Origin: Centroscyllium fabricii
Lineage: Eukaryota
Direction: 5' to 3'
DNA: 64,000 bases
Assembly (NCBI GenBank): GCA_051313645.2
Contig: JBNRSN020000039.1
Span: 6,820,001 to 6,884,000, forward strand
Shown here: positions 1 to 34,004 of the stretch, piece by piece
Numbering within the stretch: position 1 is the first letter of the stretch
How the letters are laid out: every line of letters begins with the position of its first letter
Position numbers and translations under genes: made by a program
Notes under the pieces: generated by a model
Databases searched by the model: none
What the model was told of the DNA's origin: nothing
The model's input: the letters and a program-made list of their open reading frames with translations, nothing else

Positions 1-1109
1 GTAACAATTCTCCTGTATGAAATTGCACATTGTCTGGGCGCGAATGCTCCTGTGCCAGTCTAAAGTGTCTCCAGTCTTCAGTTGTACATTAGCCTTGTCT
101 GCAATCGTCATGAGCACATCGACTCTTTCTCCACTCTGGGATTACTAACCAAACCCGGCACTTGTACTCTCTTCATCGAAGAAAGATCAGTGCGAGCGCA
201 AGTCAAGCTGTCTTCATCCTGGACCATGTTGACTGATATCTTCTGCATGGTTTATGTGCACGCACTAGTTCAGCTTTAGTAAAATTTGGCTCCACCTAAT
301 TTCTTAGCAATTAACCAATTCTGCTCAATTGCTAATAATTACTTTGCATACCGTCAGAACCTGCTCCTGACTTTTGCTCCTGGTTCTGTATATTTTTCCT
401 CCTGATTCGTCAGGATACACCTTCCTCTCGGCTGTTGTCCACATAACCCCCTCGTCATACACCGGCATCTGAGAAGACTCCTCTAAGCATAAACATAACG
501 TTGAATATTCCTATGTCCCCGTGACTCTGTCCACTGTGGATTCAAAGCACTCTGTGTTATTGCTGCCTCGAGCATGGATTCGAACCGTGACGACCACTCA
601 CCCATTCACACTTACTGTAGCTCTTACTCTCCTGTATTCTTAACAGTCCCACTTTTCTTTTTAGTATTCCTGCCTTTTGGTTTTGATGACATGTCTTCTC
701 TTATGATGGCCATTATCTAAATAGACTAGTTAATGGGATTATTCATCCTTCTGTGTTTAAAAAACGTTCATTTATCCTGCTTCCTTGTAGACCTCGGACT
801 CCTGGGGTATTTGTATTATTCCCTTCTCTTGGTTTATTTACTTACTAAATTCTCCTGTTTGTGGTTAGGAAACTTCCTTCACTCTTCATATTACTCACCC
901 TCGTCGATTTCATTATGGCCCCGCCCACCCCAAAGGTTAATCAACAGAATCGCAGGGAAATTTCTCAAACTAGATAGAAAATTGAACCCGCAGTGAGTGT
1001 TGCTCATTATTCTCCTATTTATCAGTAGAAATGATCCAATGCCCCCCCGTTCCCAAGTCAGATATCTTAATCCGAAAGCAATTTCCCTGTTTTTGTAAAT
1101 GCGGTTTCT

Positions 1110-1575
1110 AGATAAGAAAAAATAAACATATGTAGAAAGAAAGAATGAAAAAAGGAATAATTGAAAGAAAGAACGTTTAGAAAGGAATAAAAAAGAAAGA
1201 CAGAAAGAAACACAACAAGCAAGAATGTAAACACACAAGAAAGAAAAACATGAATTATAAAATAACGAATGAATGGAGGAAGGAAAATAAAAATGTACAG
1301 TTAGAAGGAAAGAAAGATGTAAGGCAGTGAGGAATTAAATCAGGGANNNNNNNNNNNNNNNNNNNNNNNNNNNNNNNNNNNNNNNNNNNNNNNNNNNNNN
1401 NNNNNNNNNNNNNNNNNNNNNNNNNNNNNNNNNNNNNNNNNNNNNNNNNNNNNNNNNNNNNNNNNNNNNNNNNNNNNNNNNNNNNNNNNNNNNNNNNNNN
1501 NNNNNNNNNNNNNNNNNNNNNNNNNNNNNNNNNNNNNNNNNNNNTAAGGCAGGAAGGGAAGAATGCAGGAAACAA
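1110..1575. repeat. GA-rich (GAAA/GGAA) low-complexity tract; homologous tracts at ~5060-5570, 7420-7870, 17440-17860, 20150-20530, 23220-23340, 28740-29115, 31810-31925
   Basis: Degenerate aaag/gaag runs that follow the conserved blocks. Confidence 0.9.
1347..1544. other. Assembly gap (N run)
   Basis: Run of n. Confidence 1.
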
Positions 1576-1610: not shown

Positions 1611-2514
1611 AGGTTGTGTGCTGAGCCCCCTCCTCCACTCCCTCTTCACTCACGACTGTGCGCCTGTCCAGGGCTCCAACACGATCATCAAGTTTGCGGA
1701 CGACACCACGTTGTTTGGCCAGATCACCAACAATGATGAGTCAGCCTACAGGGATGAGATCCAGCGCCTGGTGGGATGGTGTGCCGACAACAACCTGGCA
1801 CTGAATACCAAGAAAACTAAGGAGGACTGGATGCAGAAGACACCCCCCCCCCCCATCTTCTTCCAATGGGCCGAGGTGGAAAGACTGTCCAGCTTCAAGT
1901 TCCTCGGGGTCCACATCTCGGAAGACCTCTCCTGGTCACTAAACACCTCCTCTCTGGTTAAGAAGGCCCAACACCGCCTGTACTCCATAAGGAAACTGAA
2001 AAAAGCGGGGCTGTCATCCGGCATCCTCTCCAACTTCTACCGCTGCACATTCGAAAGCATACTGACAAGCTGCATCACTGTCTGGTATGGAAATTGCACC
2101 ATCTCGGACCGGAAGACCCTACAGCGTGTAGTCAAATCTGCCCAACGAATCACCGGTACCCAGCTACCGTCAATGGAAATAATCTACCTCAAACGCTACT
2201 TACGGAGGTCTCTGAACATTATTAAAGACCCCACACACCCCAGCCACAGTATGTTCGCCCCCCTGCCCTCCGAGAGATGCTACAGATCAATTCGCACCCG
2301 CACAACTAGATTTAAGAACAGCTTCTTCCCCAGGGCTGTCAGCCACCTGAACTCTAAAAATCAACTCCGGTACCTGCACACCTGAAAATGTAATTTACTG
2401 TATGCAATTTGCATGTAATATATTTGCACTACTCTCGGGAGTGTCGAGTCTTCGTCTCGTTGTATTGTACTAGTACTCTGCAATGACAATAAAACTTGAA
2501 TTGAATTGAATTGA
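1611..2514 (+). mobile_element. 5'-truncated Rex1/Babar non-LTR retrotransposon (RT C-terminal half, 3' UTR, (TTGAA)n tail)
   Basis: ORF 1618-2385: LSPLLHSLFTHDC...IIKFADDTT...FKFLGVHISEDLSWS...NSFFPRAV. Ends caatgacaataaaac(ttgaa)n. Inserted inside a 60-bp monomer. Confidence 0.9.
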
Positions 2515-3895
2515 ATAGACATTCTCCAGTCTGAAATTGTACATTGTCCTGGACTGAAATCATTATGTGCCCCTCTACACTATATCCAATCTAAAATTGT
2601 ACATTGGCCTGGGCTGCAATCATCCTGTGCCTATCTACAATGTATCAAGTGTTAACTTGTACATTGGCCTAGACTGGATTTCTCCTGTGTCCCTGTACAG
2701 TTTCTCCAGACTTAAAGTGTACATTGGCCTGGGCTGTAACTCTCCCGTGCCCCTCGACACTTGATCCAGTCTGAAATTGTACGTTATCCTGTGTTCGAAT
2801 CGTTCTGCGCCCCTTTCCACTTTCTCCAGTCAGTGATTGTGCATTACCCTGTGCAGAAATCGTCATGTACCTCACTGCGCTTTCTGCTGGCCAGCATTGT
2901 ATATTGGCATGGTCTGCAATCATGTAGTACAACACAGGACTTTCTCCAGGCTGAAATTGTACATGTGCCTGCGCTAGAATTATCTTATACCTCCCCGTGA
3001 TTTCTCCGGTCTGAAATTGTACATTTTACAGTGATGGAAGTCTCCACTGCCCATCAAAATTAGCTCTTGCCTGCAATCGGACGTTGCGCTGCGTTAGAAT
3101 CTTCCTGTGCCCCCCTGCACTTCCGCCAGGCTGAAATTGTACTTTGGACTGGGCTGGAGTCCTCCGAAGCAATTCTGCACTTTTCTCCAGTCTGAAATTG
3201 TACATTGCCTTGGGCTCGAATCCTCCCGTGTAGCTCTACACTTTCTCCAGTCTCAAATTGCACCTTGTACTCTCCTGTGCAGCTGTACAGTTGCTCGAGT
3301 CTGAAGTTGTAGATTGGCCTGGGCTGGAGTCCGCTTGAACATATCTGCAGTTGCTCCAGTCTAAAAGTGAACATTGTCCCGGCCTGGAATCCTGTGCAGC
3401 TCTACAGTTTTTCCCGTCTGATATTGTACATTGGCCTGGTCTTGATTCGTACTATCACCCACTTTACATACTGCAGCCTGGCGTAATGCATGGCCCTCAG
3501 CTGGAATTCCCCTTTAACCCTATAAAATTTCACATATCTGCCAGTATACATTGTCCTCGGCTGCATTCGTCATGTGCCCCTCTAATAGTTCTCCTGTATG
3601 AAATTGCACATTGGCTTGGGCGTGAAGCCTCCTGTACAGTTTGTCCAGACTGAGTTTGTAAATTGTCCTGGGCTGTGATCCGCATGTGCCCCTCTACGTT
3701 TTTGCAGACTGAAATTCTACATTTGCCTCGACTTCAAAAGTCCTATACCCCTCTAAACATACTGCCATCAGAAACTCTTCATTTCCCTGGGCTGGCATCC
3801 TCCTGTGCCGCTCTACAATATCTCCAGTCTGAAACTGTTCATTGGCCTAGGCTACAATCCCCCAGTGTCACTCTACTCTTTCAACAGTCTGTAAT
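2515..3895. repeat. 60-bp minisatellite array
   Basis: Diverged monomers of consensus ~ctccagtctgaaattgtacattggcctgggctggaatcctcctgtgcccctctacacttt. Confidence 0.93.
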
Positions 3896-4169
3896 CAGGG
3901 CATGGAAGACAGATCAGAGCGAGCGCATGTAAAGCTGTCTTCATCCTGGACTCTGTTGAATAAGATCCTCTGCATGGTTTCTGTGCACGCACTACTTCAG
4001 CTTCACATATATTTGGTTTCAACTAATTTGTTAATCATTAAACAATTCCGCTCAACTGCTAATCAATATTTTGTTTACCGTCAGAACCAGCCCTTGACTT
4101 TGATCCTGGTTCAGTTTAATTTTCCATCTGATTCGTCAGTTTCCTCCTTCCTCTCGGCTATTGTCCATC

Positions 4170-4395
4170 TGTGGTAAACCACTAATCTGCCTGTACAGAA
4201 CATGTCTGGGCATGCTTAAACTGGCACCGCCGCTGGCTTCACTCCTAAGCCCCGGTATAAAGGTGATTTACCTCCAGTCCCCTGGCTTTAATGATCGGTC
4301 TACCAGCAGAGGCATGATCGTTTTCTTCTGTTAATAAAAGCCTACTTGTTAAAAGTTTATCTCTTTGACTTTTTGGAGTTTTTGATGGCACATCG
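4170..4395 (+). mobile_element. Solo LTR (226 bp), Gypsy family related to the element at 51.5-55.6 kb
   Basis: Starts tgtggtaaac and ends gcacatcg. 5-bp TSD ccatc (4165-4169 / 4396-4400). Contains TATAAA and aataaaagcct. Absent from the other macro-repeat units. Confidence 0.85.
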
Positions 4396-5570
4396 CCATC
4401 TAAACATTTTTTTTGATTCCTGAATCAGAGAAAAATCCTCTAAGCAGAATCTACAACGTTGATTATTCCTATGTCCCCGTGACTCTGTCCTGTGTGCAAC
4501 CATAAAACTCTGTGTTCGGGCTTCCTGGAGCATGGATACGTGCTGTAACTACCACTCCCCCCTCCACGCTGCTTGTAGCTCGTACTCTCCCTTATAGTTA
4601 ATATTCACCCTTTCCGTTTTAGTAGTCTCGCATTTTGGTTTTGCTGCCATATCTTCCCTTATAATGGTGATTCCCTCGCTATCCTGGTTACTGAGATTAA
4701 TGATCCTTCTGTGTTTAAAAACATTTCCTTTCTCCTGCGTCCATGTAGATCTCGGACTCTTCGGATATTTGTATTATTCCCAAATCTTGGTTTCTTGTTA
4801 TTACTCAATTCTCCTGTTTGTGGTTATGAAACATCCTTCACTCTTCGTCGCTTTCTTTATGACCTCCCCCCCCCCCCCCGCCGCACCCCGTATATTTTAC
4901 ACAGAATCACAGGAAAATTCTCAAACGAGAAAGAAGATGAACCCATGGAGAAAGTTGCTCAGCATTCTCCTCTGTATCAGTGGAACTGATCCCCTGTGCC
5001 CCCCGTTCCCATATCTGATAACAAAATCAAAAGCTGTTGCCCTGTCTTTGTAAAAAGAGATTTGTATATGAGAAGGATAACATATAAAGAATGAATGAGT
5101 GAAAAAAGGAACGGATGAAAGAAAGAACATTTAGAAAGGAATAAAAAAGAAAGACAGAAAGAAAGCGAACAAGCAAGATAGTGAACATGCAAGAAAGAAA
5201 CAAAGAAAATATGGAATAAAGAAAGAAAGTAGGATGAAAATAAAGAAAAAAGTAAGGAAAGAAAGAAATAAGGCAATGACGAATTAATGCAGGAAAGAAG
5301 GAACGAAGGAAGAAGGCAAGGCAGAAAGAAAGTAGGAAAGAGTGAATTAAAGAAAGGAAGAAAGAAATAAAGAAAAAAAGAACGAGGGAAATAAATCAGG
5401 CAGGAAGTACGGAATGAATGAAGAAACGAGGAGCTAAAAAAAGACAGTAAGTAAGTAAAAACATTGAGAAAGATCGAAGAAAAGAAATTATGAAAGTTAG
5501 ATTTAAAAAGAAAGAAAGAACGAAAGAATGAAACAAATGCCGGAAGGAACGAATGAAGAAAAAAGGAAAG

Positions 5571-6500
5571 GACAGGCCTGGTGTCCTCCAGTGGTATTCG
5601 GAAATTACTCCAGTCTGGAATTGTATTTTGACCTGGGCTGGAATCTTCCTGTGCGACTCTAAACATTCTCCAGTCTGAAATTATACATTGACCTGGGCTA
5701 GAGTTCTCCTGTGGCCCTCAACATATTCTCCAGCCTGATATTGTACGTGGGACTGTGGGGAATTCCCCATGAGTCACTCTGGACTTGCTCCAGACAGACA
5801 TTGTGCATTTACCTGTGCTGGAATCATGCTGTGCCACTCTGGAATTCCCCTAGCCAGAAATTGCACATTTTCTGGTGACGGTAGCCTCCGCTGCCCCTCT
5901 ATACATTCTCTTGCCTGAAATTGTACATTGTCCTGTGCTGGATTCCTGCTTAACCCCTCTGCGCATTCTCCAGTCCGAAATTGTACTTTGTTCTGGGCTG
6001 GAATACTCGTATGCACCTCTACACGTTCGCCAGTCTGAATTTGTACAGTGCCACCGTATGGTGTCCTACTTTGCCCCTCTGTACTCACTGCAGTCTGAAT
6101 TTATCAAGTGTCGTCGCCGGAAATTCTCCGTTACCACTTTAAACATTCTCAGATCTGAAAACGTACACTCTCCTCGGATGGATTCGTCAGACTCCCCTTT
6201 AATAATTCTCCTGTGTGATATTTTAAATTGGCATGGGCTGGAGTCCTGATGTGCCGCTCTACAGTTTCTCCAGTCTCAAGTGTACCTTGGCGTGGCCTGG
6301 ATTTCTCCTGTGCTCCTCTACCCTTTTTCAGACTGACATTCTATATTGGCCTAATCTGAAATCCTGCCATGCCCCTCTAAAACTTCTCCATTGTGAAATT
6401 CCCCATTGGCCTGGGCTACCGCTCTATACAGTCTCCTGTCTGCAATTTTCCATTGGCCTTGTCTGTAATCTTCCTGTGCCCCTCTACTCTTTCTCCAGTC
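5571..6500. repeat. 60-bp minisatellite array
   Basis: Same monomer family. Confidence 0.93.
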
Positions 6501-6535
6501 TGGGATTATGAACCAGCCCCGTCGATTGTACTCAC

Positions 6536-6581
6536 TGCATCGAAGGCAGATCAGAGCGAGCGCAAGTAGAGCTGCCTTCAT
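6536..6581 (-). other. Putative signal-peptide (leader) exon, MKAALLALALICLRC + 1 nt, phase-1 donor GTGAGT
   Basis: The minus strand reads ATG AAG GCA GCT CTA CTT GCG CTC GCT CTG ATC TGC CTT CGA TGC A|GTGAGT. Homologous ATGs at 217, 3944, 14600, 15464, 19290, 22254, 27905 and 30841. Confidence 0.55.
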
Positions 6582-6635
6582 CCTGGACCAGTTGAATGAT
6601 ATATTCTGCAAGGTTTCTGTGCGTGCAGTAGCTCA

Positions 6636-6745
6636 GCTTTATTAATATTTGGCTGCATCGTATTTGTTAATCATTAAAAAATTCCGCTCAATTGCTAATC
6701 ATTAATTTGTTTACCGTCATTACTGACCTTGACTTTTACTCCTGG
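6636..6745 (-). promoter_or_regulatory. Putative hepatocyte-type promoter: TATA-like stretch, two HNF1-like sites, FOXA motif
   Basis: gttaatcattaaa 6666-6678, gctaatcattaat 6694-6706 and tgtttac 6708-6714. TATTAATAAAG lies on the minus strand ~60 bp upstream of the ATG. The layout is conserved across units. Confidence 0.5.
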
Positions 6746-7869
6746 TTCTGTTTAGTTTTCCTTCTGTTTCGTAAGCGTAGTCCTTCCACTCGGCTATTGT
6801 CCCGCTAACCCCATTTTCATACTCTGGTATCTGAGAAGACTCCTCTACGTTTAACGTACAATGTTGAATATTCCTATGTCCCATTGACTCTGTTCAGTTA
6901 TGAATCGTATCCCTCGGTGTTACTGCAGCCCAGAGCATGTATTCGTACCGTGACCACCACTCACCCGCAATCCTGATTGTAGCTCTTACTCTCCTGTATT
7001 TTAAACATTCCCCATACTACAGCCTTTTGTTTTTGCTGAGATCTTTTCCCTAGTAGTGGCCATTCCCTCGCTATCCTGGTCCCTGGGATTATTCATGCTT
7101 CTGTTTTTAAACACATTTCCTTCCTCCTGCTTCCGTGTCGACCTCGGCCTTCTGGGTTCTTCGTATTATTACCTTTTCTCCATTTTTTCTGATGACTCAA
7201 TTCTCCTCTCTGTGGTTATTGAAATTCCTTCATTCTTCTTATTACTCAATCTCGTCCTAATCATTATGTCGCCACCCACCCCGAACGTTTTTACACAAAA
7301 TCACAGGGAAATTACACATGCATGTCCTCTCTATCAGTGGAGCTGATCCCATGTGCTCCCCCGTTCCCATATCAGATATCCTAAACAGAAAGCTATTTCC
7401 TTTTTTTTGTAAAAGCTGTTTGTATATAAGAAGCAAAAAAATATAAAGAAAGAATGAATGAAATGGCGTTTAGAAAGTAATAACAACGAAATACAGAAAG
7501 AAAGAGAACAAGAAAGAAAGTAAAAATGCAAGAAAAGAAACAAAGAAAATAAGAAATAAAGAACGAAAGTAAAAGAAAGAAAAATAAATGTAAAGAATGC
7601 AAGAATGAAAGAAGTAAGGAAGTGAGGAATTATTACAGGAAGCAAGGAACGAATGAAGAAAGAAAGGAAGAAAGATAGAAAGTAGTAAAGAGAGAAGGAA
7701 CGAAACGAAGGTAGAAAAAAAGAAAGAGAATGAGAGAAATAAATAAATAAATAATGACCGAAAGAACGAAGGCAGGAAGAATGTGAGTAAGATCGAAGGA
7801 AAGAAAGAAAGTAAGAAAACGAAAGAAATACGTAATGCAGGAAGGAAATAATGAAGGAAATAGGAAAGG

Positions 7870-10710
7870 ACCGTGCTGGAGTCCTTCTTTGCAGCTCTAT
7901 ACATTCTCCAGTATGAAATTAGACATTGTCCTGAGCTATAATCCTCCTGTACCCCTCTGCCCTTTTTCCAGTCTGAAATAGTACATTCTCCTGGGCTGAC
8001 ATCCTCTTGTGTCCCTCGACACATTCTCCTGCCGCAAATTATTCATGCTCCTGGGCTGCAATCTTCCCGTGTCCGTATACACCTTTTCCAGTCTGAAATT
8101 CTACATTTGCCTGAGCTGGACTTCTCTTTTCCACCTCTGCACATTCTCCAGTCAGAAATTGTGCATTGTTCGGGACTGGAATCGTCCTGTGCCGCTGTAG
8201 ACTTTCTCCAGTCTGGAATTGATCATAATCCAGTAGGCCCATCTACAAATTGCCGAGTATGAAATTATATATTGGCCTCAGCTGGAATCCTCATCGGCCC
8301 CTTTACATTTTCTCCCATCTTAAATTGTAGATGTTCTCTCCTGGGACACTCCTGTGCCCATCGACAATTTATCCAGCCTCAACTTGTCCATTGACTTGGG
8401 CTGGAATTATCCTGCGCCCCTCTTAATTTGCTGCAGTCCGAAATTGTACGTTGTCCTCGGCTGGAATCCTCCGGTGCCCCTTTACATTTTCCCCTGTCTT
8501 ACTTGTAAATTGGCCTCGGCTAGAATTTCCTGTGCACCTCTACATTTTCGCAATTCCGAAATTGTACAATGGCCTGGGCTGGCATCCTCTTGTGTCACTC
8601 TAGATTTTGTCCATAATGAAGTCGTACATTGGACTGAGCAACAATGTACTATGCCGCTCTAAACTTTCCCCAGCCTGACACTGTATATTGGCCAGTGCTG
8701 CAATTCACCCGAGCACATCTACAATATCTCCAATCTAAAATTGTGCACTGGCCTGGGCTGGAATCATCCTGTGTCCCGCTAAATTGTCTCCAGTCTCAAA
8801 TTGTACCGTGGCCTGAGCTGGAATACTCCTACGTCCCTCAGAAACTTCTCCCATCCGTAATTGTGCATTCGCCTGGGCTGGAAACCTCCTGTGCCCCATT
8901 TCAATTCCTCCATTCTCAAATTGTTTAATGGCCTGGGAGATAAACCTGTTCTGTGACTCTGGATTTGCTAAAGACTGAAATTGCACATTGTTCACTGCTG
9001 GAAACAATTTGATATTTGCTGGTATTTTATCCAGTCCGAAATTGAACATTTTCCGGTGTTGGAATATGCCACTGTCCCTCTATACTTTCTGCAGTCTGAA
9101 ATTATACATTGGTCTGGGATGGTATACTCCTGTAAACCTCGGCCCTTCCACCAGTCTGAATTTGTAATTTGGTATGTGCTGGAGTCCTCCTGTGCACCTC
9201 TAAACTTACTGCAGTCTGAAATTTACATTGCCCTAGACTGCAATGCTCCATTTCACTCTACATATTCTCCAGTCTGAAATTGTACATTGGCCTGTACGAA
9301 AATCGTCCTCTGCCACTCTGCACTTTTTCCAGTATGAAATTGTACATTGTCCTGTACTTTAATCGCCCTGTGTCCCTCTGCACTTTTTCCAGCATGGAAT
9401 TGAACATTGTCCTGTACAATATTCGTCCTGTGCCCCCATGCACTTTCTCCAGTCTGAAATTGTACATTGGCCTGGGCTGGAATTCTCCTGTGCTACTCTG
9501 AACCATCGCCAGGCTGAAATTGTACATTGGCCTGTGCTGAAATCCTCCTGAGCCCCTTTGTACTTTCTCCAGTTTGAAATGGTATATTTGCTTGGCCTAG
9601 AATTCTCTTGTGCCACTCTGTACTTTCTCCACTTTGAAATTGTATATTTGCTTCTCCTAGATTTCTCTTGTGCCACTCTGGATTTTCGCGAGACTGAAAT
9701 TATATTTTTTCCCCGGCTGGCAAACTCCTGTGCTGCTCAAAACATTGTCCAGTCTGAAATTGTACATTGGCCTGTTCTGGAATTCTCCTTTGGCACTTAA
9801 CTTGTTCTCCAGTCTGAAATTGTACATCGGCCAGTGCTGTAATAATCCCATGCGCCTCTACACTATCTCCAGTCTAAAGTTGTGCATTGCCTGAGCTGGA
9901 TTCATACTGTTCAACTTTACATTTTCTGCAGTCTCAAATTGTACATTTGCCTGGGCTGGAATCCTCCTGCGTTACTCTGAACATTCTCCCATTTGTAATT
10001 GTTCATTAGCCTGGGCTGGAATCCTCCTGTGCCCCACTTCAATTTCTCCATTATTAAATTGTATAATGGCCTGTGATGGAATAACTCTTCTGCCACTCTG
10101 TTTTTTCTAAAGACTGACATTGCTCATTGTCCTGTGCTGGAGCAATCTTGTGACTTTCTAGAATGTATCCAGACTTAAATTGTACATTTTCCGGTGATGG
10201 AATTCTCCGCTGCCCCCCTATAATTTCTACAGTCTGAAATTGTATATTGGTCTGTCCTGGAATCCTCCTGGACGTCACTAAACTATCACCATTCTGAAAT
10301 GGTACATTTGACTGTGCTGCAGGCATCCTGAGCCCCTCTCTACTTTCTCCACTCTAAAAGTGTATACTGGCTTTGGCTAAAATTCTCTTGTACCACTCTG
10401 GACTTTCTCCAGACTAAAATTTGACATTTTCCTTTGAAGGAGTCGTCCGCTGACCCTCTGTACCTTCTCTTTCCTCAGGTTGTATAATTTCCTGGTCTGG
10501 AAACCTCCTTGACACCTCTGCACTTGCTCCAGTTCTAAATTATACACTTTCCAGAGCTGGAATACTCATGTGTCCATCTAAACTGTCTCCAGCTTCAAAT
10601 TGTAAGTTGGCCTGGGCTGGAGCACTCCTGAGCCCCTCTACACTTACTGCAGTCTGAGCATGTACATAGGCCTAGGCTGAAATAATCCTATGCCTGTCGA
10701 CCCTATCTCC
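7870..10710. repeat. 60-bp minisatellite array
   Basis: Same monomer family, roughly 47 monomers by length. Confidence 0.93.
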
Positions 10711-10877
10711 ATTTTTTTTGCTGACATCTCCTCCGTTATAATGGCCATTCTCTCGCCATCCTGGTTAATGTAGTTATTCAACCTTCCGTGTTTCATCACA
10801 TTTCCTGCCTCCTGCTTCCAGGTAATCTTCGGCCTCCTGGAATCTTCATATTACTCATTTTTCTTAGTTTCTTGTTA

Positions 10878-11758
10878 TTCAATTCAATTCAATTCAATTC
10901 AAGTTTTATTGTTATTGCAGAGTACTAGTACAATACAACGAGACGAAGACTCGACACTCCCGAGAGTAGTGCAAACAAAACAAACAAACCACATAAATAA
11001 ATTGCATACAGTAAAGTTCATTATCAGGCGTGCAGGTGCCGGAGTTTCTTTTTAGAGTTCAGGAGGCTGACAGCCCTGGGGAAGAAGCTGTTCTGAAATC
11101 TAGTTGTGCGGGTGCAAACTGCTCTGTAGCGTCTCCCCGGAGGGCAGAGGGGCGAACAGACTGTGGCTGGGGTGTGTGGGGTCTTTTATAATGTTCATAG
11201 ACCTCCGTAAGCAGCGTTTGAGGTAGATGCTTTCCACTGACGGTAGCTGTGTACCGGTAATTCGTTGGGCAGTTTTGACTACCCGCTGCAGGTTTTTCCG
11301 GTCCGAGATAGTGCAATTACCATACCAGACAGTGATGTAGCTTGTCAGTATGCTTTCTATTGTGCAGCGGTAGAAGTTGGAGAGGATGCCGGATGACAGC
11401 CTGGCTTTCTTCAGCTTCCTAAGGAAGTACAGGCGCTGTTGGGCCTTCTTAACCAGAGAGGAGGTGTTTAATGACCAGGAGAGATCTTCCGAGATGTGGA
11501 CCCCGTGGAACTTGAAGCTGGACACCCTTTCCACCTCAGCCCCTTGGATGAAGATGGGGGTGTGTCTTCTGCTTCCAGTCGTCCGGAAGTCCACTATGAT
11601 CTCCTTCGTTTTCTTGGTGTTAAGTGCCAGGTTGTTGTCGGCACACCAACCGACAAGGTGCTGGATCTCATCCCTGTAGGCTGACTCGTCGTTGTTGGTG
11701 ATCTGGCCAACCACCGTGGTGTCATCCGCGAACTTGATGATCGTGTTGGAGCCATGGA
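10878..11758 (-). mobile_element. 5'-truncated Rex1/Babar retrotransposon, same family as 1611-2514
   Basis: ORF 11100-11765 (-): IIKFADDTTVVGQI...KTKEIIVDFR. (ttcaa)n tail at ~10878-10902; the 3' UTR closely matches the first copy. Confidence 0.92.
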
Positions 11759-12031
11759 TACTCAATTCTCCTGTCTGTGGTTATAAAACTTCCTTCATTT
11801 TACTTAATACTCAAACACTTCGTCTTCATTATGAACACGGCCCACCCCATAGGTTATTACACAGAATCACAGGGAAGTTACTCAAACAAAACGAAAATTG
11901 AACCCACCGTGCATGCTGCTCATTTTAGTCCTCTATGACAGTGCAACTAATCCCCTGTGCCGCCCCCCCCCCCCCCGTTCCAATTTCAGATATCCTAAGC
12001 AGAAAGCTAATTACCTGTTTTTGTAAAGCGG

Positions 12032-12579
12032 NNNNNNNNNNNNNNNNNNNNNNNNNNNNNNNNNNNNNNNNNNNNNNNNNNNNNNNNNNNNNNNNNNNNN
12101 NNNNNNNNNNNNNNNNNNNNNNNNNNNNNNNNNNNNNNNNNNNNNNNNNNNNNNNNNNNNNNNNNNNNNNNNNNNNNNNNNNNNNNNNNNNNNNNNNNNN
12201 NNNNNNNNNNNNNNNNNNNNNNNNNNNNNNNNNNNNNNNNNNNNNNNNNNNNNNNNNNNNNNNNNNNNNNNNNNNNNNNNNNNNNNNNNNNNNNNNNNNN
12301 NNNNNNNNNNNNNNNNNNNNNNNNNNNNNNNNNNNNNNNNNNNNNNNNNNNNNNNNNNNNNNNNNNNNNNNNNNNNNNNNNNNNNNNNNNNNNNNNNNNN
12401 NNNNNNNNNNNNNNNNNNNNNNNNNNNNNNNNNNNNNNNNNNNNNNNNNNNNNNNNNNNNNNNNNNNNNNNNNNNNNNNNNNNNNNNNNNNNNNNNNNNN
12501 NNNNNNNNNNNNNNNNNNNNNNNNNNNNNNNNNNNNNNNNNNNNNNNNNNNNNNNNNNNNNNNNNNNNNNNNNNNNNNN
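12032..12579. other. Assembly gap (N run)
   Basis: Run of n. Confidence 1.
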
Positions 12580-12597: not shown

Positions 12598-14520
12598 GGC
12601 CCCGAATGGAATCCTCCTGTGCCTCTCTAGCCATTTTCCAGTCTGAAATTGTATATTGTCCTGGGCTGAAATCTTTCTGTACACCCCAACACTTTCGTCA
12701 GTCAAAAATTGTGCATTGGCCTGGGCTGGCATCATCCTGTGCCCGTCCACACTTTATCCAGTCTGCAATTATACATTGACCTGGACTGGATTTCTCCTGT
12801 GTCCGTCCACACTTTAACCAGTCTGAAATTGAACATTGACCTGGAATGGATTTCTCCTGTGCCCCTATATACATTATTCAGTCTTACATTGTACATTGGT
12901 CTTTGCTGGTATACGCCTGTGCCCATTTTCAATGTCTACCGTCTTAATTGTACATTGGCCTGGGCTGCATTCCTTCAGTACAACTCTACACTTGATCCAG
13001 TCTGAAATTTGACGTGGTACTGGTGTCGAATAATCCTGTGCCACTTTGCACGTTCACCAGTCCGTAATCCTGCATTAGCCTGTGCTGGATTCGTCCTGTG
13101 CCTCTCTACACATTCTCAATTCTAGCATTGTATATTCGCATGTTCTAAAATCTTGCAGTGCAACACCCGACTTTCTCCAGTCAGAAATTGTACATTTGCC
13201 TGTGCTAGAATCTTCTTATGCCTCTCGGGAATTTCTCAAATCTGAAATTGTACATTTTCCAGTGATGGAATCCTCCGCTGACCCTCCACACGTTCTCCTG
13301 CCTGAAAGTGGACATTAACCTCGGCTGGAAACTTTCTGTGCCCCTCTAAACTTTCGCCCGGCTGAAATTGTACTTTGGCCTGGGCTGCAGTCCTCCTGAT
13401 CACTTCTAAACCTCCTCCAGTCCGAAATTGTAAATCTGTGCAGCTCTAAACTTTCTCCACTGTGAATAGGTATATTGTGCTCGGCTGGAGTCATCCGGTG
13501 CAGGTCTACACTTTCTCCAGTCTGTAATTGTACACTGTCCTGGGCTGGAATCGTCCTGTGCAGCTCTACACTTTCTCCAGTCTGTAATTGTACATTGTCC
13601 TGGGCTGGAATCCTCATGTGCAGCTCTACACTTTCTGCAGTCTGAAATTGTACGTTGGCCTGGGCTGGAATCCTCCTGGTCACGTCTGCACCTTCTCCAG
13701 TCCGAGATTGTATATCGGCCTGGGCTGGAATCCTTTTGTGCAGCTCTAAAATTTCTGCAGTCAGAATAGGTACATTGTCCGGGGCTGGAATAATCCTGTG
13801 CAGCTCGACACATTCTCCAGTCTGTAATTGTACATTGTCCTGGGCTGGAAACCTCATGTGCAACTCTCAATTTTTTCCCGGCTGAAATTGTTCTTTGGCC
13901 TAAGCTGGTGTACTCCTGATCACTTCTACGCATTCTCCAGTCCGAAATTGTATATCGCCCTGGGCTGGAATCCATCTGTGCAGCTCTAAACTTTCTCTAG
14001 TCTGAAATTGAGCATGGTCCGGGGCTGGAATCGTCCTGTGCAGCTCTAAACTTTCTCCAGTCTGTAGTATACATTGTCCTGGGCTGGAATCCTCCTGTGC
14101 AGCTCTAAACTTTCTCCAGTCTGAAATTGTACATTGTCCTCGGCTGGAATCCCCCTGCGCACATCTACACATTCTCCAGTCTGAAAGTGTACCTTGTCCT
14201 GGGCTGGAATTCTCCTGTGCAGCACTGCAATTTCTACAGTCTGAAATTGTACATTGCCCGGGCTGGAGTCCTCCGGTCCCCCTCTTTACATAAAGCAGTC
14301 TGAAGGAATGCACTGTCCTCCCGTGGAATTCAGCTTTACCGCTCTCCACTTTCACATATCTGAAAGTATACATTGAGCCCCTGTAACATTTCTCCTGTAT
14401 GAAATTGCAAATTGGTCTGGGCGTGATTCCTCCTGTGCCAATCTGCAGTTTATCCAGTCTTGAGCTGTTAATTGGCCTTGGCTGCAATCGTCATGTGCCC
14501 CTCTACACGTTCTCCAGTCT
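12598..14520. repeat. 60-bp minisatellite array, most homogeneous part at ~13440-14270
   Basis: Successive 60-nt lines from 13501 to 14040 stay in register (cagctctacactttctccagtctg...), which fixes the period at 60 bp. Confidence 0.96.
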
Positions 14521-14554
14521 AGGATTATTGACCAACCCCGGCGCTTGTACTCAC

Positions 14555-14600
14555 TTCTTCGAAGACAGATCAGTGTGAGCACAAGTAAAGCTGTCTTCAT
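14555..14600 (-). other. Putative leader exon copy MKTALLVLTLICLRR with intact GTGAGT donor
   Basis: Homolog of 6536-6581; open frame with a GT donor at 14554. Confidence 0.5.
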
Positions 14601-16160
14601 CGTGGATCCTGTTGAATGATACCCTCGGCATGGTTTCTGTGTACGCACTAGTTCAGCTTTAGTAATATGTGTCTGCACCTAATTTATTAACAATTAACCA
14701 ATTCTGCTCAATTGCTAATCATTACTTTGCTTACCGTCAGAACCTGCCCTTGAATTCTGCTCCTTGTTCTGTATATGTTTCCTACTTATTCGGCAGGATA
14801 CTGCATCCTCCCGGCTGTTGTCTATCTAACCCCCTGCGCATGCACACGTATCTGAGAAGACTCCTCTAAGCAAAACCTACAACGTTGAATATTCCTAGTC
14901 CCCGCGTCTCTGACCAGTGTGAAATCAGGGCATACTGTGTTATTGCTGCCTAGAGCATGGATTCGAACCGTGACTATTACTTCCTCCTCCGCCCTAATGT
15001 CGCTCTTACTCTGCTATATTCAAATGTGGAGGTACATTGTCCTCGGATGGATTCGTCATGCTCCAGTGTAATATTTCTCCTGTGTGAACTTGTACATTGG
15101 CATGGGCTGCAGTCCTGCTGTGACCCTCTACAATATCTCCAATCTGAAAGTGTACCTTGGCCTGGGCTGGAATTCTCATGTGCCCCTCTACTCTTTTTCA
15201 GACTGACATTCTATATTGGCCTCGTCTAAAATCCTCCCAAGCCCCTCTAAAACTTCTCCATTATCAAATTCTCCATTGGACTGGTCTAATATCCTGCTGT
15301 ACCACTCTGTAGTGTCTCCTGTCTGAAATTGTTCATTGGCCTTGTCTGTAATCCTCCTGGACCCCTCTAATATTTCTCCAGTCTGCGATTATGAAGCAGC
15401 CCCGTCGTTTGCACTCACTGCATCAAATGCAGATCAGAGCGAGCGAAAGTACAGCTGCATTCATCCTGGATCCAGTTTAATGATATCTTCTGCATGATTA
15501 TTGTACGCGCACTAGTTCAGCATTATTAATATTTGGCTGCACCTTATCTGTTAATCATTGAACAATTCTGCTCAATTGCTGATCATTAATTTGTTTATCG
15601 TCATTACTTGCCCTTGAATTTTACACAAGACTTTTACACAAGATTCTGTTATGTTTTCCTCCTGATTCGTCAGCTTACTCCTTCCTTCGGCTATTGTCCC
15701 TCGAAACACCTTTTCATACTCTGGTATCTGAGAAGACTCCTCTAAGTTTAACGTACAATGTTGAATATTCCTATGTCCATTTGACTCTGTCCAGTTTGGA
15801 ATCTTATCACTCGGTGTTAGTGCTGCCGAGACCAAGGATTCCTACCGTGACGACCACTGCCCCTCCACCCTGCTTGTAGCTCTCAATCTCATGTATTCTC
15901 AACATTACCCGTTTTCTTTTTAGTATTCCTGCCATTTGGTTTTGCTGTCATCTCTTCCCTTCTATTGGCTATTCCCTCGCTATCCTGGTTACTGTGATTA
16001 TTTATCCTTCTGTGTTTAAGCACATTTCCTTCCTCCTGTTTCCGTGTAGACCTCGGCCTCCTGGTTTCTTCGTATTATTACCTTTTCTCCATTTTTTGTT
16101 ATTACTCCATACTCCTGCCTGTGGTTATTGAAAATCCTTCATTATTCGTATTACTCATCC

Positions 16161-17238
16161 TTGGGTTGGCAGATAGAAAACAGAGAGTTGGAATTAACGG
16201 CATGTTTTCTCAGTGGCAGGCGGTGACTAGTGGGGTACCGCAGTGGTCTGTCCTGGGACTCCAGCCGTTTACAATATATATTAATGATCTGGAACAGGGA
16301 ATTGAATGTAATATCTCCAGATTCGCGGATGACACCAAACTAGGAGGGGGGGCGGGCTCTGAAGAGGGTGTCAGGAAGTTACAGGGTGATTTGGATAAGT
16401 TGGGGGACTGGGCAGAGCGATGGCAGATGCACTATTATGTGGATAAATGTGAGGTTATCCACTTTGGGGGCAAAAACAGGAGGATAGATTATTACTTAAA
16501 TGGCAATAGATTGGGAGATGGGGAGGTGCAAAGAGACCTGGGTGTTCTTGGACACCAGTAGCTGAAGGTGAGCACGCAGGTGCAGCAGGCGGTTAGGAAG
16601 GCAAATTGTGTGTTGGCCTTCATATCAAGAGGGGTCGAGTATAGGAATAAGGATACCTTACTGCAGCTGTACAAGGCAATGGTGAGACCACACCTCGAGT
16701 ATTGTGTACAGTTCTGGTCGCCTCGCCTGAGGAAGCATGTTCTTGCCATGGAAGAGGTGCAGCGGCGTTTCACCAGGCTGATTCCTGGAATGGCAGGAAT
16801 GACCTACGAGGAGAGACTATGCAGTCTGGGCTTGTACTCGTTGGAGTTTAGAAAATTGAGAGGCGATCTCATTGAGACGTATACAATTCTGAAAGGCCTG
16901 GATAGGTTAGATTCAGAGAGATTGTTTCCAATGGCGGGGGAGTCCAGAACCAGGGGCCACGGTCTAAGAATAAGGGGTAAACCATTTAGGACAGACATGA
17001 GGAAGAATTTCTTCACTCAGAGAGTGGTGGGCCTGTGGAATTCCTTGCCACAGAGGGCGGTGGAGGCCAGCTCATTAAACATATTCAAGAGGGAATTGGA
17101 TATATTTCTTCAAGCTAAAGGGATTAAAGGTTATGGAGAAAAGGCGGGGACGGGGTACTAGCTTGCTAAAGATCAGCCATGATCTCATTGAATGGCGGAG
17201 CAGGCTCGAAGGGCTGAATGGCCTACTCCTGCTCCTAT
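16161..17238 (+). mobile_element. 5'-truncated CR1 LINE (shark HER1-like 3' end) inserted in macro-repeat unit 6
   Basis: SGVPQWSVLG...FADDTKLGG...VRPHLEYCVQFW...FFTQRVV. 3' UTR gatcagccatgatctcattgaatggcggagcaggctcg... with a (ctatgatt) tail. One in-frame stop near 16560. Confidence 0.93.
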
Positions 17239-17860
17239 CTTCTATGATTCTATGATTCAATGATTGTCCTATTCATTATGACGCCACCCATCCCGAAGGT
17301 TTTTTTAAACAAAATGACAGGGAAATTACGCATTGATGTTCTCTCTATCAGTAGAGCTGACCCCATGTGCTCCCCCGTTCGCATATCAGATATCCTAAAC
17401 AGAAAGCTATTTCCAAGGGTTTTGAAAACGCTGTTTTTATATAAGAAACAAAAATATACAAAGAAAGAATGATTCAAAGAGCATTTAGAAAGTAATAACA
17501 ACGAAAGACAGAAAGAAAGAGAACAAGCAAGAAAAAACCAAATAAAATAAGAAATATAAGAACGAAAGTAGAAATGAGAGAAAGAAAAAAGTAAAGAAAG
17601 AAAAAATGTAAGAAATAATGCAGTGAGGAATTATTGCAAGAAGGAAGGAACGAACGAATAAAGAAAGAAATAAAGATAGAAAAAAGTAAAGAGAGAAGGA
17701 AGGCAACGAAGGATAAAAAAAAGAAAGAGAGAAATAAACAAAAAAGAATGACCGAAAGAAAGAACGAAGGAAGAATGTAAGAAAGATCGAAGGAAAGAAA
17801 GAAAGAAAACGAAAGAACGAAATAAGGCAGGAATGAAATAATTAAGGAAATTAGAGAAGG

Positions 17861-19210
17861 ATCGGGCTGGAGTCCTCCTTTTCAGCTCTACACATTCTCC
17901 AGTCTAAAATAATACATTGGCCTGGGCTGCAATCATCCGGTGCCCCTCTAAACATTCTCCAGTCTGAAATTGTACATTGTCCAGGGCTGCAATCATCCTG
18001 TGCCCCTCTGCACATTTTACAGTCTGAAATTGAACATTGGCCTGGGCTGCTGTCATCCTTTGCCCCTCTCAACATTCTCCAGTGTGAAATTGTACATAGT
18101 CCTTGGCTATAATCGTCCTGTGCCCCTCTGCACAGATTACAGTCTGAAATTGTATATTGTCCTGGTCTGACGTCATCTTGTGCCCCTCTAATCTTTCTCC
18201 AGTCTGACATTGTGCATGGTCCTGGGCTGGATTCTTCCCCTGACCCTCTAAACTTGCTCCAATGTAAAACTGTATATTGGCCTGGGCTAGAAACCTCTTG
18301 TGCTACTTTGGAATTTCTCCAGACTGAAATTGTAATTTTTTCTGTGCTGGAATCATCTTGTCCCACTATGGTATTTCACTTGCCCCAATGTGTACATTTT
18401 CCTCCATGGCACCTCTATAAATTCTCTTGCCTGAAATTGTACATTGGCCTGGGCTAGAATCCTCCTTAACTTCTCTGCACAGTCTCCAGTCTGAAAGTGT
18501 ACATATGCTGGACTGGAATAATCCTGTGCACCTCTACATTTTCTCCAGTCTGAAATCTAATCTTGACAAGAGCTGGAGTCGTCCTGAGCACCCTTCCATT
18601 ACGGCAGTATCAAATTATATATTGGCATTGGCTGTAATTCTCCTATGCCCCTCTGTCCCTATCTCCAGTCTGAAATTGTACTTTGTGCAGGGCTGGAATA
18701 CTCCTGTGGACCTCTACACGTTCTCCGGCCTGAAATCATACATTGTGACGATATGCAGTCCTACTGACCCCCTCTCTACTTACAGCAGTCTGAGGTTATA
18801 CATTGGCCTCGGCTCAAATTCTCCTTTACCCCTCTACACTTTCTCATATATTAAATTGTACATTGTTCTGGGCTGGATTCGCCATGCGGCCCTGTAACAG
18901 TTCTCCTGTCTGCAATTGTAAATTGGCCTGGGTTCGAATCTTCCTGTAACCCTCGACATTTTCTCCAGTCTGAAATTGTACATCGGATGGGCTCGATTCC
19001 ACCTGTACACCTCTACTGTTTCTCCATTATCAAATTGTACATTGGCTTCGCCTAGAATCTTTCTCTGTCCCTCTAAACATTCTCCATTTTGAACAGCTTC
19101 ATTTGACAGGGCTGGAAACGTGTTGTGCCCCTCCAAAACTTCTCGAGTCTGGAATTGTTAATTGGCCTTGTCTGGAATCATCCAGTGCCCCTCTACTCTT
19201 TCCCCAGTCT
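17861..19210. repeat. 60-bp minisatellite array
   Basis: Same monomer family. Confidence 0.92.
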
Positions 19211-19375
19211 GCGATTGTGAACCAGCCCCGTCGGGTGTACTCAGCAGATCGAAGACTGATCAGAGTGAGCGCAAGTGAAGGTCTCTTCATCCTGGATACA
19301 GTTGAATGATATCCTCTACATGGTTTCTGTGCGTGCACTGAATCAGCTTTAGCAATATGTGGCTGCACCCAATTT

Positions 19376-19388
19376 GTTAATCATTAAC
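19376..19388. promoter_or_regulatory. Perfect HNF1 consensus GTTAATCATTAAC (also at 27991-28003)
   Basis: Exact match to GTTAATNATTAAC, ~86 bp upstream of the leader ATG at 19290 (-). Confidence 0.55.
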
Positions 19389-21439
19389 CGATTCTCTCAT
19401 TTGCTAATCATGAGTTTGTTTACCATCAGAACCAGCCCTTGCCTTTTGTTCCTGTTTCTGTTTATTTTTTTCCACCTGATTTGTCAGGTTACTCCTTTCC
19501 TCTCGGCTATTGCCCATCAAACCACTTTCTCATACTGTGGTATCTGGGAAGTGTCCTCTAATCGTATCACACAAAGCTGAATATTCTCATGGCTCTGTGA
19601 CGCTGTCTATTGTGGAATCATAACACTCTGTATTATTGCTGGCCGAGTATTGGTACACTGGCGACCACTCCACCCTGCTTGAAGTTTTTACTATCTTGTA
19701 TTTTTAACATTCCCCCTTTTCTTTTTAGTATTCCTGCCTTTTCTCTTTGTGACATGTCTTCACTTATAATGGCCATTCCCAAGATATCATGGTTACTGGG
19801 ATTATTCAAATTTATGTAATTCAACACATTTCCTTCCTCCTGTTTCAGGGAAGTCTCGGCCTCCTGCGTTCTTAATATTATTCATTTATGTTGGTTTGTT
19901 ATTATTACTCAATTCTCCTGTCTGTAGCTATAAAACTTCCTTTATTCTTCTTTTTACTCATTCACGTCGTTTTCATTATGACGCCACCCACCCCGTAGTT
20001 TATTACACAGAATCACATGGAAATTATTCAAACGCGAAAGACAACTGAATCCACAATGAGTGTTGCTCATCATGCTCCTCCCTATCAGTAGAGCTGATCC
20101 AATGTGCCCCGAATTTCACATATTACATACACTAATCATAAGTTATATCCCTGTGTATAGTATGAATATAAGAAGCAATGAATGAAATAAAGAACATTTA
20201 GAAAGGAATCAAACCGAAAGACAGAAACAGAGAACAAGTTATAAAATAAAAAATGGAAGAAAGAAACATGAAACTAAGGAGCAAAGAAAGAACGTAGGAA
20301 GGAAACAAAGAAAAATGTAAAGAAAGAAAGCAAGATATAAAGAATAAGGCAGTGAGGAATGAAAGCAGGAAGGGATGTTCGAAGGAATAAAATAATACAG
20401 TAGGAATGTGAGAAGGCAAGAAATGAGGTAAGAATGAATAAAATAACGGAAGAAAGAAAGAAAGAGAGAAATAGAAGGAACGACGGAAATAAATCAGACA
20501 AGGAAGTAAAGAATGAATGAAACAAGAAAGGACAGGACTGGCGTCCTCCTGTGCACCCCTACACTTACTGCAGTCTGAAATTGTACATTGGCCTAGATTG
20601 GAATCCTGCGGTGGCCCTGTACAGATTCGCCAGCCTGAATTTGTAAGTTGGCTTTGGCTCGAGTCCTCCTGTGCAACGCTACACTTACTGCAGTCTGAAA
20701 TTACACATTGGTCTGCACTGGCATGCTACTGTGCCCATCTAGAACTTCTCCAGTACGAATTTGTACATTGACCTGAGCTGGAACTTTCCTTTCTCCAGTC
20801 TTAAATTGTAATGTGATTGTTCTTGACTACTCCTGTGCCCATCTACACTTGCTGCATTCTGAAACTGTACGCTGTCCAGGGCTGGAAAACCATTGCGCCC
20901 CTCTTCAATTTCTCCAGCCGAAGATTGTAAAGTGGCATCAGCTGGAATCCTCCTGTGCACCTCTACACTTTCTCAAATCTGAAATTCTATATTAGCCTGG
21001 GCTGGCAACCTATTGTTCCACTCTGGACATTCTCCAGACTGAAATTGTACATGTTCCGGTGGTGGAATACTCTGCTACCCCTCTGTACGTTCTCCTGTCT
21101 AAAATTGTACATTGGCCTGTGCTGAAGTCCTCCTGTGCACCTTTACAATCACTGCAGTCTGAAATTGTACATTGGCTTAGACTGTCATTCTACATTTCGC
21201 TCTAAATGATCTCTGGTCTGAAATTGTACATTGGCCTTAGCTATAATCATCCCGTGCCCCTCTGCACTTTCTCCAGTCTGAAATTCTACATTGTTCTGGG
21301 TTGGCATCCTCTTCCGCCCCTATACAATTTATCCAGTCCGAAATTGTACGTTGTCCTCAGCTGGAATACTCCTGTGCCACTCTACACTTACTCCAGTCAG
21401 CAATTCTACTTTGGCCTGGGCTGGAATACTCCTACATAC

Positions 21440-21835
21440 GAACATAACAAATAGCAGCAGAAGTAGCCCAATCGGCCCCTCGAGCCTGCTCCACCATTCA
21501 CAAGATTATCGCTCATCTTATCATAACCTGAAATCTACTTTCACTCTCCATCCCACCCGTACGCATGTGATCTCCCGGGAGAGGCGAAACGGCAGAAAAA
21601 TAAACGAATGGCAAATGTGGGAAAAAAAATCTGGGGAGATCATTTCCGACCCCTCTTGGCGATCGAAACTCGTCCAAAAGTTCACATGGCCGATCTAAAC
21701 CTAGCCTTAAATCCACTTTCCTGACGGCTCACCGTAATCCCTAATGCCCTTTACATCGCGAAAGCTGTCTCTGCTTGAAATACATTCAATTAGTAGTTTC
21801 CACAGCTGTCTGGGGCAGACAATTCCACAGACATG
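21440..21835 (-). mobile_element. Degenerate CR1-type 3' end fragment(s) (duplicate at ~30027-30422)
   Basis: gaacataacaaatagcagcagaagtagcccaatcggcccctcgagcctgctccaccattca resembles the reverse complement of the CR1/HE1 3' UTR. Confidence 0.6.
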
Positions 21836-21908: not shown

Positions 21909-23341
21909 ACGCGCCCCTGTAACATTTCACGTATCTGCAATTATACATTGACCTGTGCTCGAATGCTCCTGTGCCCATCTACCCAATTTCAGACTGAGGT
22001 TCTGCATTGGTCTCGACTGGAATCATCCTATGTCCCTTTAACATTCTCCTTTCTGAAATTCTAAATTGGCCTGGGCTAGAATAATGCTTTGCCGCTCTAA
22101 ATTTTGTCCATTGTGAAAATGTTAATTGGCCTTGGCTGGAATCCTCCTCTGCCCCTCTACTCTTTCTGCAGTTTTAGATCATGAACCAGCACCGTCGGTT
22201 GTACTCAATGCATTGAAGACAGATCATAATGAGGGTAAGTACAGCTGCCTTCATCCTGGATCCAGTTGAATGATTCCTCTGCATGTTGTCTGTGCGCGCA
22301 CTAGCTCAGCTTTAGTTATATTTGCCTGCACCTCATTTTTTAATCATTAACCAATTCCGCTCAATTGCTAATCATTAGTTTATTTAAAGACATAACCTGC
22401 CCTTGACTTGTACTCATTTGTTCTGTTTATCATTTCTCCTGATTCGCCAGCTTACTCCTACCTCTCGGCTGTTGTCCATCTAAAACCCTTCTCACACTCC
22501 GGGATCTTAGAATAATCCATTATGGGTAACGCATAACATTGAATATTCCTATGTACCCGTGGCTCTGTCCAGTTTGGAATCATAACATGCCTTGTTAGAG
22601 CTGCCTAGAGCTTGGATTTGTACCGTGAAGACCACTCCCCCTCCACCCTGCTTGTAGCTCTTAAACTCATGTATTCTTAACATTCCCAATTTTCTTTTTA
22701 ATATTCCTGCCTTGTGGTTTTGCTGACATGTCTTCACTCATACTGTCCATTCCCTCGCTATCCTGGATCCTGGGATAATTCTTCCTTTTTGTGTTTCATC
22801 ACATGCCCTTTCTCGTGCTTGCGTGTAGATCTCGGGATCCAGGGTCCTTTGTATTATTACTTTATCTTGGTTTCTTGCTGTTATTCATTTCTCCTGTCTG
22901 TGGCTATATAACTTCCTTCATTCTTCTTATTGCTCACCCGCATCTTTTTCATTATGGCCCCTACCCAATCTGTAGGTTTTTACACAGAATCTCAGGGAAA
23001 TTAGAGGGAAGGCGCATGGAGCGTGCTGTGGTAGGCCCCAGGCCTCAGACCCGATGTTTGAAACTTGGACTTGAAATTACACAAAGGGGAAAGACAATTG
23101 AATCCACAGTGAGTGATGCTCATTATTCTCCCGTCTATCAATAGAACTGATGCCAAGCCCCCCACCCGCGTTCCCATATTTATTCTTCTGGTCAGAAATC
23201 TCATCGCACTTTTTGTAGAAGCTGTTTCGATATAAGATAGAAAAAGTATAAAGAAGAAATAAATGAAGGAAGGAAAGATTATAAGAAAGGGCATAAAAAG
23301 AATAAAAACGAAAGACAGAAAGAAAGAGAACAAGCAATAAT

Positions 23342-33990: not shown

Positions 33991-34004
33991 AGAACTTGAC
34001 TCAG

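Follow-up and report, generated by a model that had tools for sequence, protein, structure and literature searches.

Tandem copies of a probable fossil HNF1-type promoter and leader in Centroscyllium fabricii

Introduction

Does a run of HNF1-like palindromes, each set at a fixed distance upstream of a signal-peptide-like frame, mark living promoters, or was a single gene start copied and then left to decay? We asked this of a 64,000-nt stretch of Centroscyllium fabricii DNA (GCA_051313645.2, contig JBNRSN020000039.1, positions 6,820,001-6,884,000, forward strand), referred to below as the window. The initial annotation had read upstream of each leader a hepatocyte-type promoter module, made up of two HNF1 sites and forkhead, TATA-like and HNF4-like elements, and had proposed both a real gene start and a multimerised liver enhancer. 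We find that the locus is probably a fossil: the HNF1 promoter and leader of a putative secreted-protein gene, amplified in tandem and now drifting.

Results

Organization of the array

The window from 1 to 31.9 kb is a head-to-tail array with a unit of 2.6-3 kb. On the minus strand, a unit runs from a distal unique region through a promoter-like module, a leader and an array of 60-bp monomers to a pyrimidine (TTTC) tract. The promoter module is kept in nine units (A, B, C, D, E, F, G, F2 and G2), and a tenth, H, is without it. The units and their principal interruptions are as follows; copy C is itemized further below.

135..1337, minus strand: copy A; ATG at 217, stop at codon 5, HNF1 site at 303 (3 mismatches), donor lost
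3887..5110, minus strand: copy B; ATG at 3944, HNF1 site at 4030 (1 mismatch), donor deleted, 231-bp insertion in the distal part
10690..12031, minus strand: copy H; promoter and leader lost by deletion, with a Rex1-like LINE fragment inside the unit (10879-11758)
14516..15021, minus strand: copy D; ATG at 14600, leader open, donor intact, HNF1 site at 14686 (2 mismatches), distal part truncated
15380..16158, minus strand: copy E; ATG at 15464, stop at codon 14, HNF1 site at 15550 (2 mismatches)
16160..17240: CR1-like LINE inserted at copy E
19206..20200, minus strand: copy F; ATG at 19290, exact HNF1 site at 19376, leader less hydrophobic, donor lost
22170..23330, minus strand: copy G; ATG at 22254, HNF1 site at 22339 (1 mismatch), donor lost, stop at codon 27
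27097..32567: recent duplicate of 18482-23980, 97.5% identical, holding F2 (ATG at 27905, HNF1 site at 27991) and G2 (ATG at 30841, HNF1 site at 30926)

The copies share a common descent. Since F2 and G2 re-duplicate F and G, the nine promoter copies amount to seven independent lineages, which are 75-87% identical over the promoter. A tree of eight of the nine copies, with B left out, is nearly star-like and pairs A with D and C with E. All copies lie on one strand, head to tail, and none is dispersed within the window; they are spaced 0.9-8.6 kb apart, that is, not side by side. On the left, the side toward which transcription would run, the array continues beyond the window.

Several other features accompany the units. 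The insertion in copy B (4167-4395, 231 bp) lies upstream of the promoter; its plus strand has a TATAAA and also an AATAAA that resembles a poly-A signal. Two Rex1-like LINE fragments in the array, at 1667-2519 (plus strand) and 10879-11758 (minus strand), are 87% identical and in opposite orientations, and these insertions give a relative date for the array. They carry (ATTCA/TTGAA)n tails, and short tails of this kind are also present at 21837-21889 and 30424-30474. A nested, recent segmental duplication, 97-98% identical, links 18482-23980 with 27097-32567, 25245-27103 with 34280-36112 and 23976-24322 with 33934-34283; it could instead be an unresolved assembly haplotype. In G and G2 the GAAA tract is cut by an insertion, at whose edge there is an exact 22-bp tandem duplication (23336-23379 and 31923-31966). 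The assembly gaps at 1347-1544 and 12032-12579 both fall at unit GAAA tracts, so unit lengths there are uncertain.

The rest of the window holds a single-exon rhodopsin-family GPCR at 39967-40900 (minus strand) with one frameshift near 40480-40430, both halves of which match 7tm_1; we take it to be GPR139-like. A nearly full-length CR1-like LINE at 46594-50620 (plus strand) has ORF1, endonuclease and reverse transcriptase in a few long frames, its ORF1 being presumably esterase-like. Broken retroelement frames follow at 51648-55090 (plus strand), 57000-59900 (minus strand) and 61410-62461 (minus strand), which we take to be a gypsy-type LTR retrotransposon and a Tx1-like LINE. Translations of the window also contain what we presume to be Penelope-like remnants. 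Further tandem repeats occur at 24575-24932 (28 bp), 26103-26564 (160 bp), 41246-41650 (44 bp) and 46129-46426 (19 bp).

HNF1 sites

Copy C shows the anatomy of the promoter most fully. Its parts, from the end of the unit to its distal region, are the following.

5117..5570, plus strand: (GAAA)n-rich tract closing the array of copy C, the pyrimidine tract of the leader strand
5609..6493, minus strand: 60-bp minisatellite array after the leader; 14 monomers with 3 spacings that break the frame, and 4 stops when read in the frame of the leader
6530..6535, minus strand: GTGAGT, splice-donor-like site in phase 1
6536..6581, minus strand: signal-peptide-like leader beginning at the ATG at 6581, MKAALLALALICLRC, 15 codons and 1 base
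6582..6637, minus strand: presumed start-site region and 5′ UTR
6638..6648, minus strand: AT-rich stretch at the TATA position, no exact TATAWAW
6666..6678, no strand assigned: proximal HNF1-type palindrome, 1 mismatch, 85 bp upstream of the minus-strand ATG
6694..6706, no strand assigned: second HNF1-like site, 2 mismatches
6708..6714, plus strand: forkhead core TGTTTAC, exact
6724..6739, minus strand: nuclear-receptor-like element, with TCAAGGTCA at 6724-6732
6746..7480, no strand assigned: distal unique part, about 75% identical among copies, no convincing coding frame

We compared the proximal palindromes with the HNF1 consensus GTTAATNATTAAC, as given in a report on the PCSK9 promoter (PMC2781434). 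The exact palindromes annotated at 19376-19388 and 27991-28003 are indeed there, as are the one-mismatch sites at 4030, 6666 and 22339; a further one, at 30926, had been missed. The sites of copies D and E have two mismatches and that of copy A three, and eight of the nine copies thus carry a site with 0-2 mismatches. The spacing of about 85 bp to the leader ATG also holds, at 85-86 bp in 9/9 copies, with the start site itself inferred.

In a shuffle control, the window gave nine HNF1 matches at up to two mismatches against a mean of 2.19, and none of 100 shuffles reached nine. These nine are the eight first sites plus the second site of copy C, all inside copies of one unit; the matches are therefore not independent, and the excess is inflated by copying. 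The pairs 19376/27991 and 22339/30926 are duplicates within the 97.5% identical 5.5-kb block, and the two exact sites are one recent duplication. Outside the array, 31.4 kb of the window contains no match at up to two mismatches. Across the copies, the column majority of the site is a perfect palindrome. By base composition, the chance of such an ancestral site is 2 × 10−5 to 5 × 10−5 per 200 bp, 3 × 10−4 to 7 × 10−4 per 3-kb unit and 6 × 10−3 per window.

Other promoter motifs

The remaining parts of the annotated module fared unevenly. A second HNF1-like site is present 27-28 bp further upstream, close to the 28 bp described, but with two mismatches in copy C only and three to four elsewhere. 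The forkhead core TGTTTAC is exact in four of the nine copies (4072, 6708, 19417 and 28032). As for the TATA-like stretch some 60 bp from the ATG, the sequence there is AT rich, but no copy of the nine has an exact TATAWAW at that position. The HNF4-like motif, which we took to be TGRACTTTG, is found at up to one mismatch in copy B alone (4094), and its 50 matches in the window against 42 expected are at chance level. TCAAGGTCA at 6724-6732 is presumably an NR5A/ERR-type half-site; this pattern, assumed by us and picked after viewing the alignment, fits five of the nine copies and reads better than HNF4. The HNF4 and TATA parts are weak. Since HNF1 also works in kidney, gut and pancreas, the label "hepatocyte-type" is too narrow.

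Leader and splice donor

The leader ATG has an A at −3 and is followed by a basic residue and a hydrophobic run (shown for copy C in the list above), then by GTGAGT in phase 1. In a control of ATGs outside the array, a simple hydropathy rule scored 3/1055 as signal-like, and 0/1055 also had a phase-1 donor. The donor GT is kept in copies C, D and E only, and E has a stop in its leader. An open leader together with the GTGAGT donor is therefore seen in two of the nine copies, C and D, and only these two combine the ATG, basic residue, hydrophobic core and phase-1 GT donor of a leader exon; each of the other seven lacks an open frame, the hydrophobic core or the donor. Eight of the nine copies, C being the exception, have a further ATG in good context, 30-31 nt before that of the leader and out of frame in six. 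Were the AT-rich stretch to serve as TATA, this upstream ATG would sit only a few bases from the cap and could be skipped. Some copies have an acceptor-like site after the pyrimidine tract.

Taken back to the ancestor of the unit, the proposal of a real gene start is well supported: a signal-like ATG that leads to a phase-1 GTGAGT is preceded, at 85-135 bp, by a near-perfect HNF1 palindrome, a weaker second site and a forkhead core. A once-real HNF1 promoter and leader is likely because the ancestral site is improbable by chance in a 3-kb unit and the leader is rare among control ATGs. This evidence is one observation copied nine times.

Conservation of the motifs

Among the outcomes that would count against it, the initial annotation had named motif columns no better conserved than their flanks, and this is what the alignment gave. 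Over seven independent copies and 55 motif columns, pairwise identity was 0.797 against 0.807 for base-matched proximal columns (p = 0.64), in a weak test (sd 0.03) that would miss one or two live copies. The proximal HNF1 site has 1.43 mismatches per copy, with 1.44 expected at the local divergence, and ranks 304th in conservation among 774 windows of 13 bp. The spacer between both HNF1 sites (0.886) is better conserved than either site. In the leader, identity at codon positions 1, 2 and 3 is 0.71, 0.82 and 0.85; the third position is the most conserved, which is the opposite of purifying selection. The promoter motifs show no sign of maintenance and decay at the neutral level.

One difference runs along the unit. 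Conservation is higher in the proximal 260 bp (0.808) than in the distal 500 bp (0.755; 13 versus 25 blocks, block permutation p = 0.005, five full-length copies), and this holds for non-CpG bases too. The difference fits past constraint after duplication, and could also be ongoing constraint, conversion or alignment quality.

Measured against an active HNF1 promoter, then, the array has the palindrome within about 100 bp of the inferred start; its motif columns are not conserved, it has no canonical TATA, and the window holds no intact downstream gene.

The 60-bp repeat and its frames

When the leader ATG frame is read on, it enters the 60-mers as 20-residue repeats with two cysteines. A natural example of the repeat frame, RKCRAAHEDSSPGQCTITDW, lies within 13409-13996 and has two cysteines and basic residues. 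These read-through frames stop within 4-82 codons in all nine copies, and the 175 monomers together contain 108 stops and 36 frame-breaking spacings. The majority sequence of the ancestral array has four stops in 110 codons, with monomers past the first not pairing reliably. Monomers are 78% identical to the majority and 64% to each other, alike within and between arrays. The leader-adjacent monomer is orthologous between units (0.79), which indicates that the 60-mer array is older than the amplification of the unit.

No frame showed excess amino-acid identity among 93 indel-free monomers. Stops in the leader frame were slightly fewer than in permutations (44/500 as low), but this deficit is not specific, because it is stronger still (0/500) in a plus-strand frame that contains a stop by design of the repeat itself. 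With neither an open frame nor excess amino-acid conservation in any one frame, we did not find a coding tandem repeat under selection. A hidden exon in the distal region or leader was sought in 42 frame tests, without a convincing signal; the lowest values, 2/300, 2/300 and 3/300, came from frames with 4, 2 and 3 majority stops, and the unit yielded no exon under selection that is linked to an acceptor. An origin of the 60-mer from the CTISD segment of Rex1 was rejected (best E 0.23 by blastn and 8.5 by nhmmer), and a degenerate monomer beyond the GAAA tract was unsupported (best E 5.1). Where the monomers at 2525-30753 depart from their majority, transversions are frequent: C>A is 0.116 versus 0.103 for C>T, and G>T is 0.110 versus 0.082 for G>A, all on the leader strand, which is unusual for neutral vertebrate DNA.

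Searches for homologues

At the curated cut-off, Pfam gave no match for the repeat frames, the leaders or four distal-region frames (copies A, B and G). A word-index protein search returned no homologue of the repeat frame among 7 candidates near its length and 75 longer ones, nor of a possible second-exon frame at 894-1097 among 26 candidates. A HMMER profile of the repeat, run against 1.84 billion protein representatives, gave 23 matches at E ≤ 0.001. We regard these as periodicity artefacts: the eight inspected share only a 10- to 20-residue periodicity, and none has a similar leader. Of the 23, 22 were scanned with Pfam and fell into unrelated families or none, and three of ten looked up had names, all hypothetical. 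A profile search of the PDB with the repeat returned no match. In the ESM Atlas, the best hit for the repeat (0.89) is unnamed. The leader frame of copy D reached 0.85 to a PAN/apple domain, with 119 shared features against the 170 expected of true members; this likeness is a weak lead. The exact 21-base core of the repeat is absent from the metagenome contigs and viral contigs searched, and Rfam and a tRNA scan gave no matches in the sequence. We found no description of the locus or family in the literature searched, which included few subscription papers; species annotations could already name the gene. Since no homologous protein was found, the case for a gene origin is that made by the motif statistics.

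Discussion

The observations probably describe a fossil HNF1 promoter and leader. The ancestor would have been the proximal promoter and leader of a vertebrate secreted-protein gene, transcribed from here, driven mainly by HNF1 and helped by a forkhead site, in liver, or in kidney, gut or pancreas. The 2.6-3 kb unit would then have been amplified head to tail to at least ten copies, and the proximal 260 bp was perhaps held briefly after amplification. Later, the copies would have drifted and gained LINE insertions and deletions, with one block re-duplicated recently; most present copies are presumably silent. What followed the leader in the ancestor allows two answers. It may well have been spliced at GTGAGT, with the 60-mers as intron; a reading straight into a protein of 20-residue two-cysteine repeats is only slightly less likely.

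The layout has parallels among known loci. The albumin gene has a minimal promoter to −84 that holds HNF1 and TATA (PMC12786076). As in albumin-type plasma-protein promoters, HNF1 here lies close upstream of the TATA position and of a signal-peptide start; unlike them, this is a tandem set of nine copies, with no canonical TATA, no motif conservation above background and no identified gene body. Arrays of unprocessed pseudogenes, as a general class, share the head-to-tail copies, neutral decay, LINE insertions, deletions and nested re-duplication, but here each unit holds a 60-bp minisatellite in register with the leader, and no parent gene was found. If read through, the unit would resemble what we take to be the class of secreted repeat polyproteins and peptide precursors, with a signal peptide and then in-frame 20-residue repeats with two cysteines and basic residues; it differs in having no homologue in Pfam, the PDB or the protein representatives searched, no selection signal and all frames broken.

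Copy C, and perhaps D, could still be a live alternative promoter and leader exon, joined by splicing at GTGAGT to a gene body that would lie past the rest of the array, left of the window. The UGT1A cluster would be the precedent: its tandem HNF1-bearing promoters have unique first exons (PMC10659769). Both loci line up similar promoters that carry HNF1 sites, and each promoter has, in the array putatively, a first exon and a donor to itself. In UGT1A, the first exon accounts for about half of the enzyme; here, in contrast, the exon would be a leader-only cassette of 46 nt, broken in seven of nine copies, with no common exons within the window. Copy C does keep the fullest motif set (the proximal HNF1 site with one mismatch, the best second site with two, exact TGTTTAC and the half-site), the most hydrophobic leader and the donor, it is free of the upstream ATG, and the array leaves the window on the side toward which it would be transcribed. 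Two-mismatch HNF1 sites can function: in PCSK9, a site with 11/13 matches is essential to the promoter (PMC2781434). But copy C was singled out after the fact, its branch (0.088) is no shorter than the branches of broken copies (0.084 for E), the unit has no acceptor-linked exon under selection, and two intact leaders among seven lineages is what drift at about 12% divergence would probably leave. We therefore consider a live cassette unlikely.

Rather improbable, too, is a macrosatellite without gene ancestry, whose copies inherited a palindrome like that of HNF1 and a hydrophobic ATG frame from a single chance origin. A single ancestral event is all this reading needs; no homologue was found, the leader, motifs and repeats are without selection, the TATA and HNF4 parts are poor, and scanning 64 kb for many motifs gives many chances. 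It requires, however, several rare items in the right order within 190 bp: a palindrome improbable even for the whole window, a signal-like ATG, a phase-1 GTGAGT seen behind none of the control ATGs, a second site and a forkhead core.

The annotated multimerised liver enhancer, acting today on a nearby gene through HNF1 and FOXA, is unsupported and highly improbable. HNF1 could bind those copies whose sites are near the consensus, and the proximal blocks are slightly more conserved than the distal ones; yet the motifs are no better kept than their flanks, the copies stand kilobases apart, most leaders are broken, and no target is in view because the only non-mobile gene seen in the window is the frameshifted GPCR.

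Least plausible is the capture of a promoter and leader by a non-autonomous mobile element, for example one of the rolling-circle type that contains a mini- and a microsatellite: the near star-like divergence and the minisatellite and microsatellite anatomy resemble what we presume of such elements, but the copies lie head to tail on one strand with none dispersed in the 32-64 kb region. Contig numbers also speak against a high-copy element, although they are no copy count and miss more diverged copies: at 80% likeness or more, 6440-7480 was matched by only 35-48 contigs in each of four DNA runs, which come from one study with at most two samples, and no more than seven of these contigs had a variant letter in the promoter columns, close to what the paralogues in the window would give.

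With the fossil promoter and leader as the preferred reading, the finding as it stands is modest: a familiar, textbook kind of promoter in fossil form. It carries a caution, that repeated motifs in tandem copies count once, and it illustrates that comparing motif columns with flanks tells inherited from maintained sites. What makes it useful is where it points: this promoter with its leader would be the 5′ end of a gene for a secreted protein that has no match in any protein collection searched. There is a slim chance that they are the remnant, or in copy C a live cassette, of a new HNF1-driven secreted-protein gene in a cartilaginous-fish-like vertebrate, with an intact, expressed form in this species or a relative. 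Such a gene would be either a precursor of 20-residue two-cysteine repeats without a relative among the 1.84 billion representatives, or a set of alternative first exons, each no more than a leader, that supply a gene beyond the left edge of the window. Should an intact copy prove to be expressed, the nine promoters would offer a natural series for the decay of an HNF1 site, and the locus would represent a new family of proteins of plasma, kidney or gut in a vertebrate lineage that is under-annotated.
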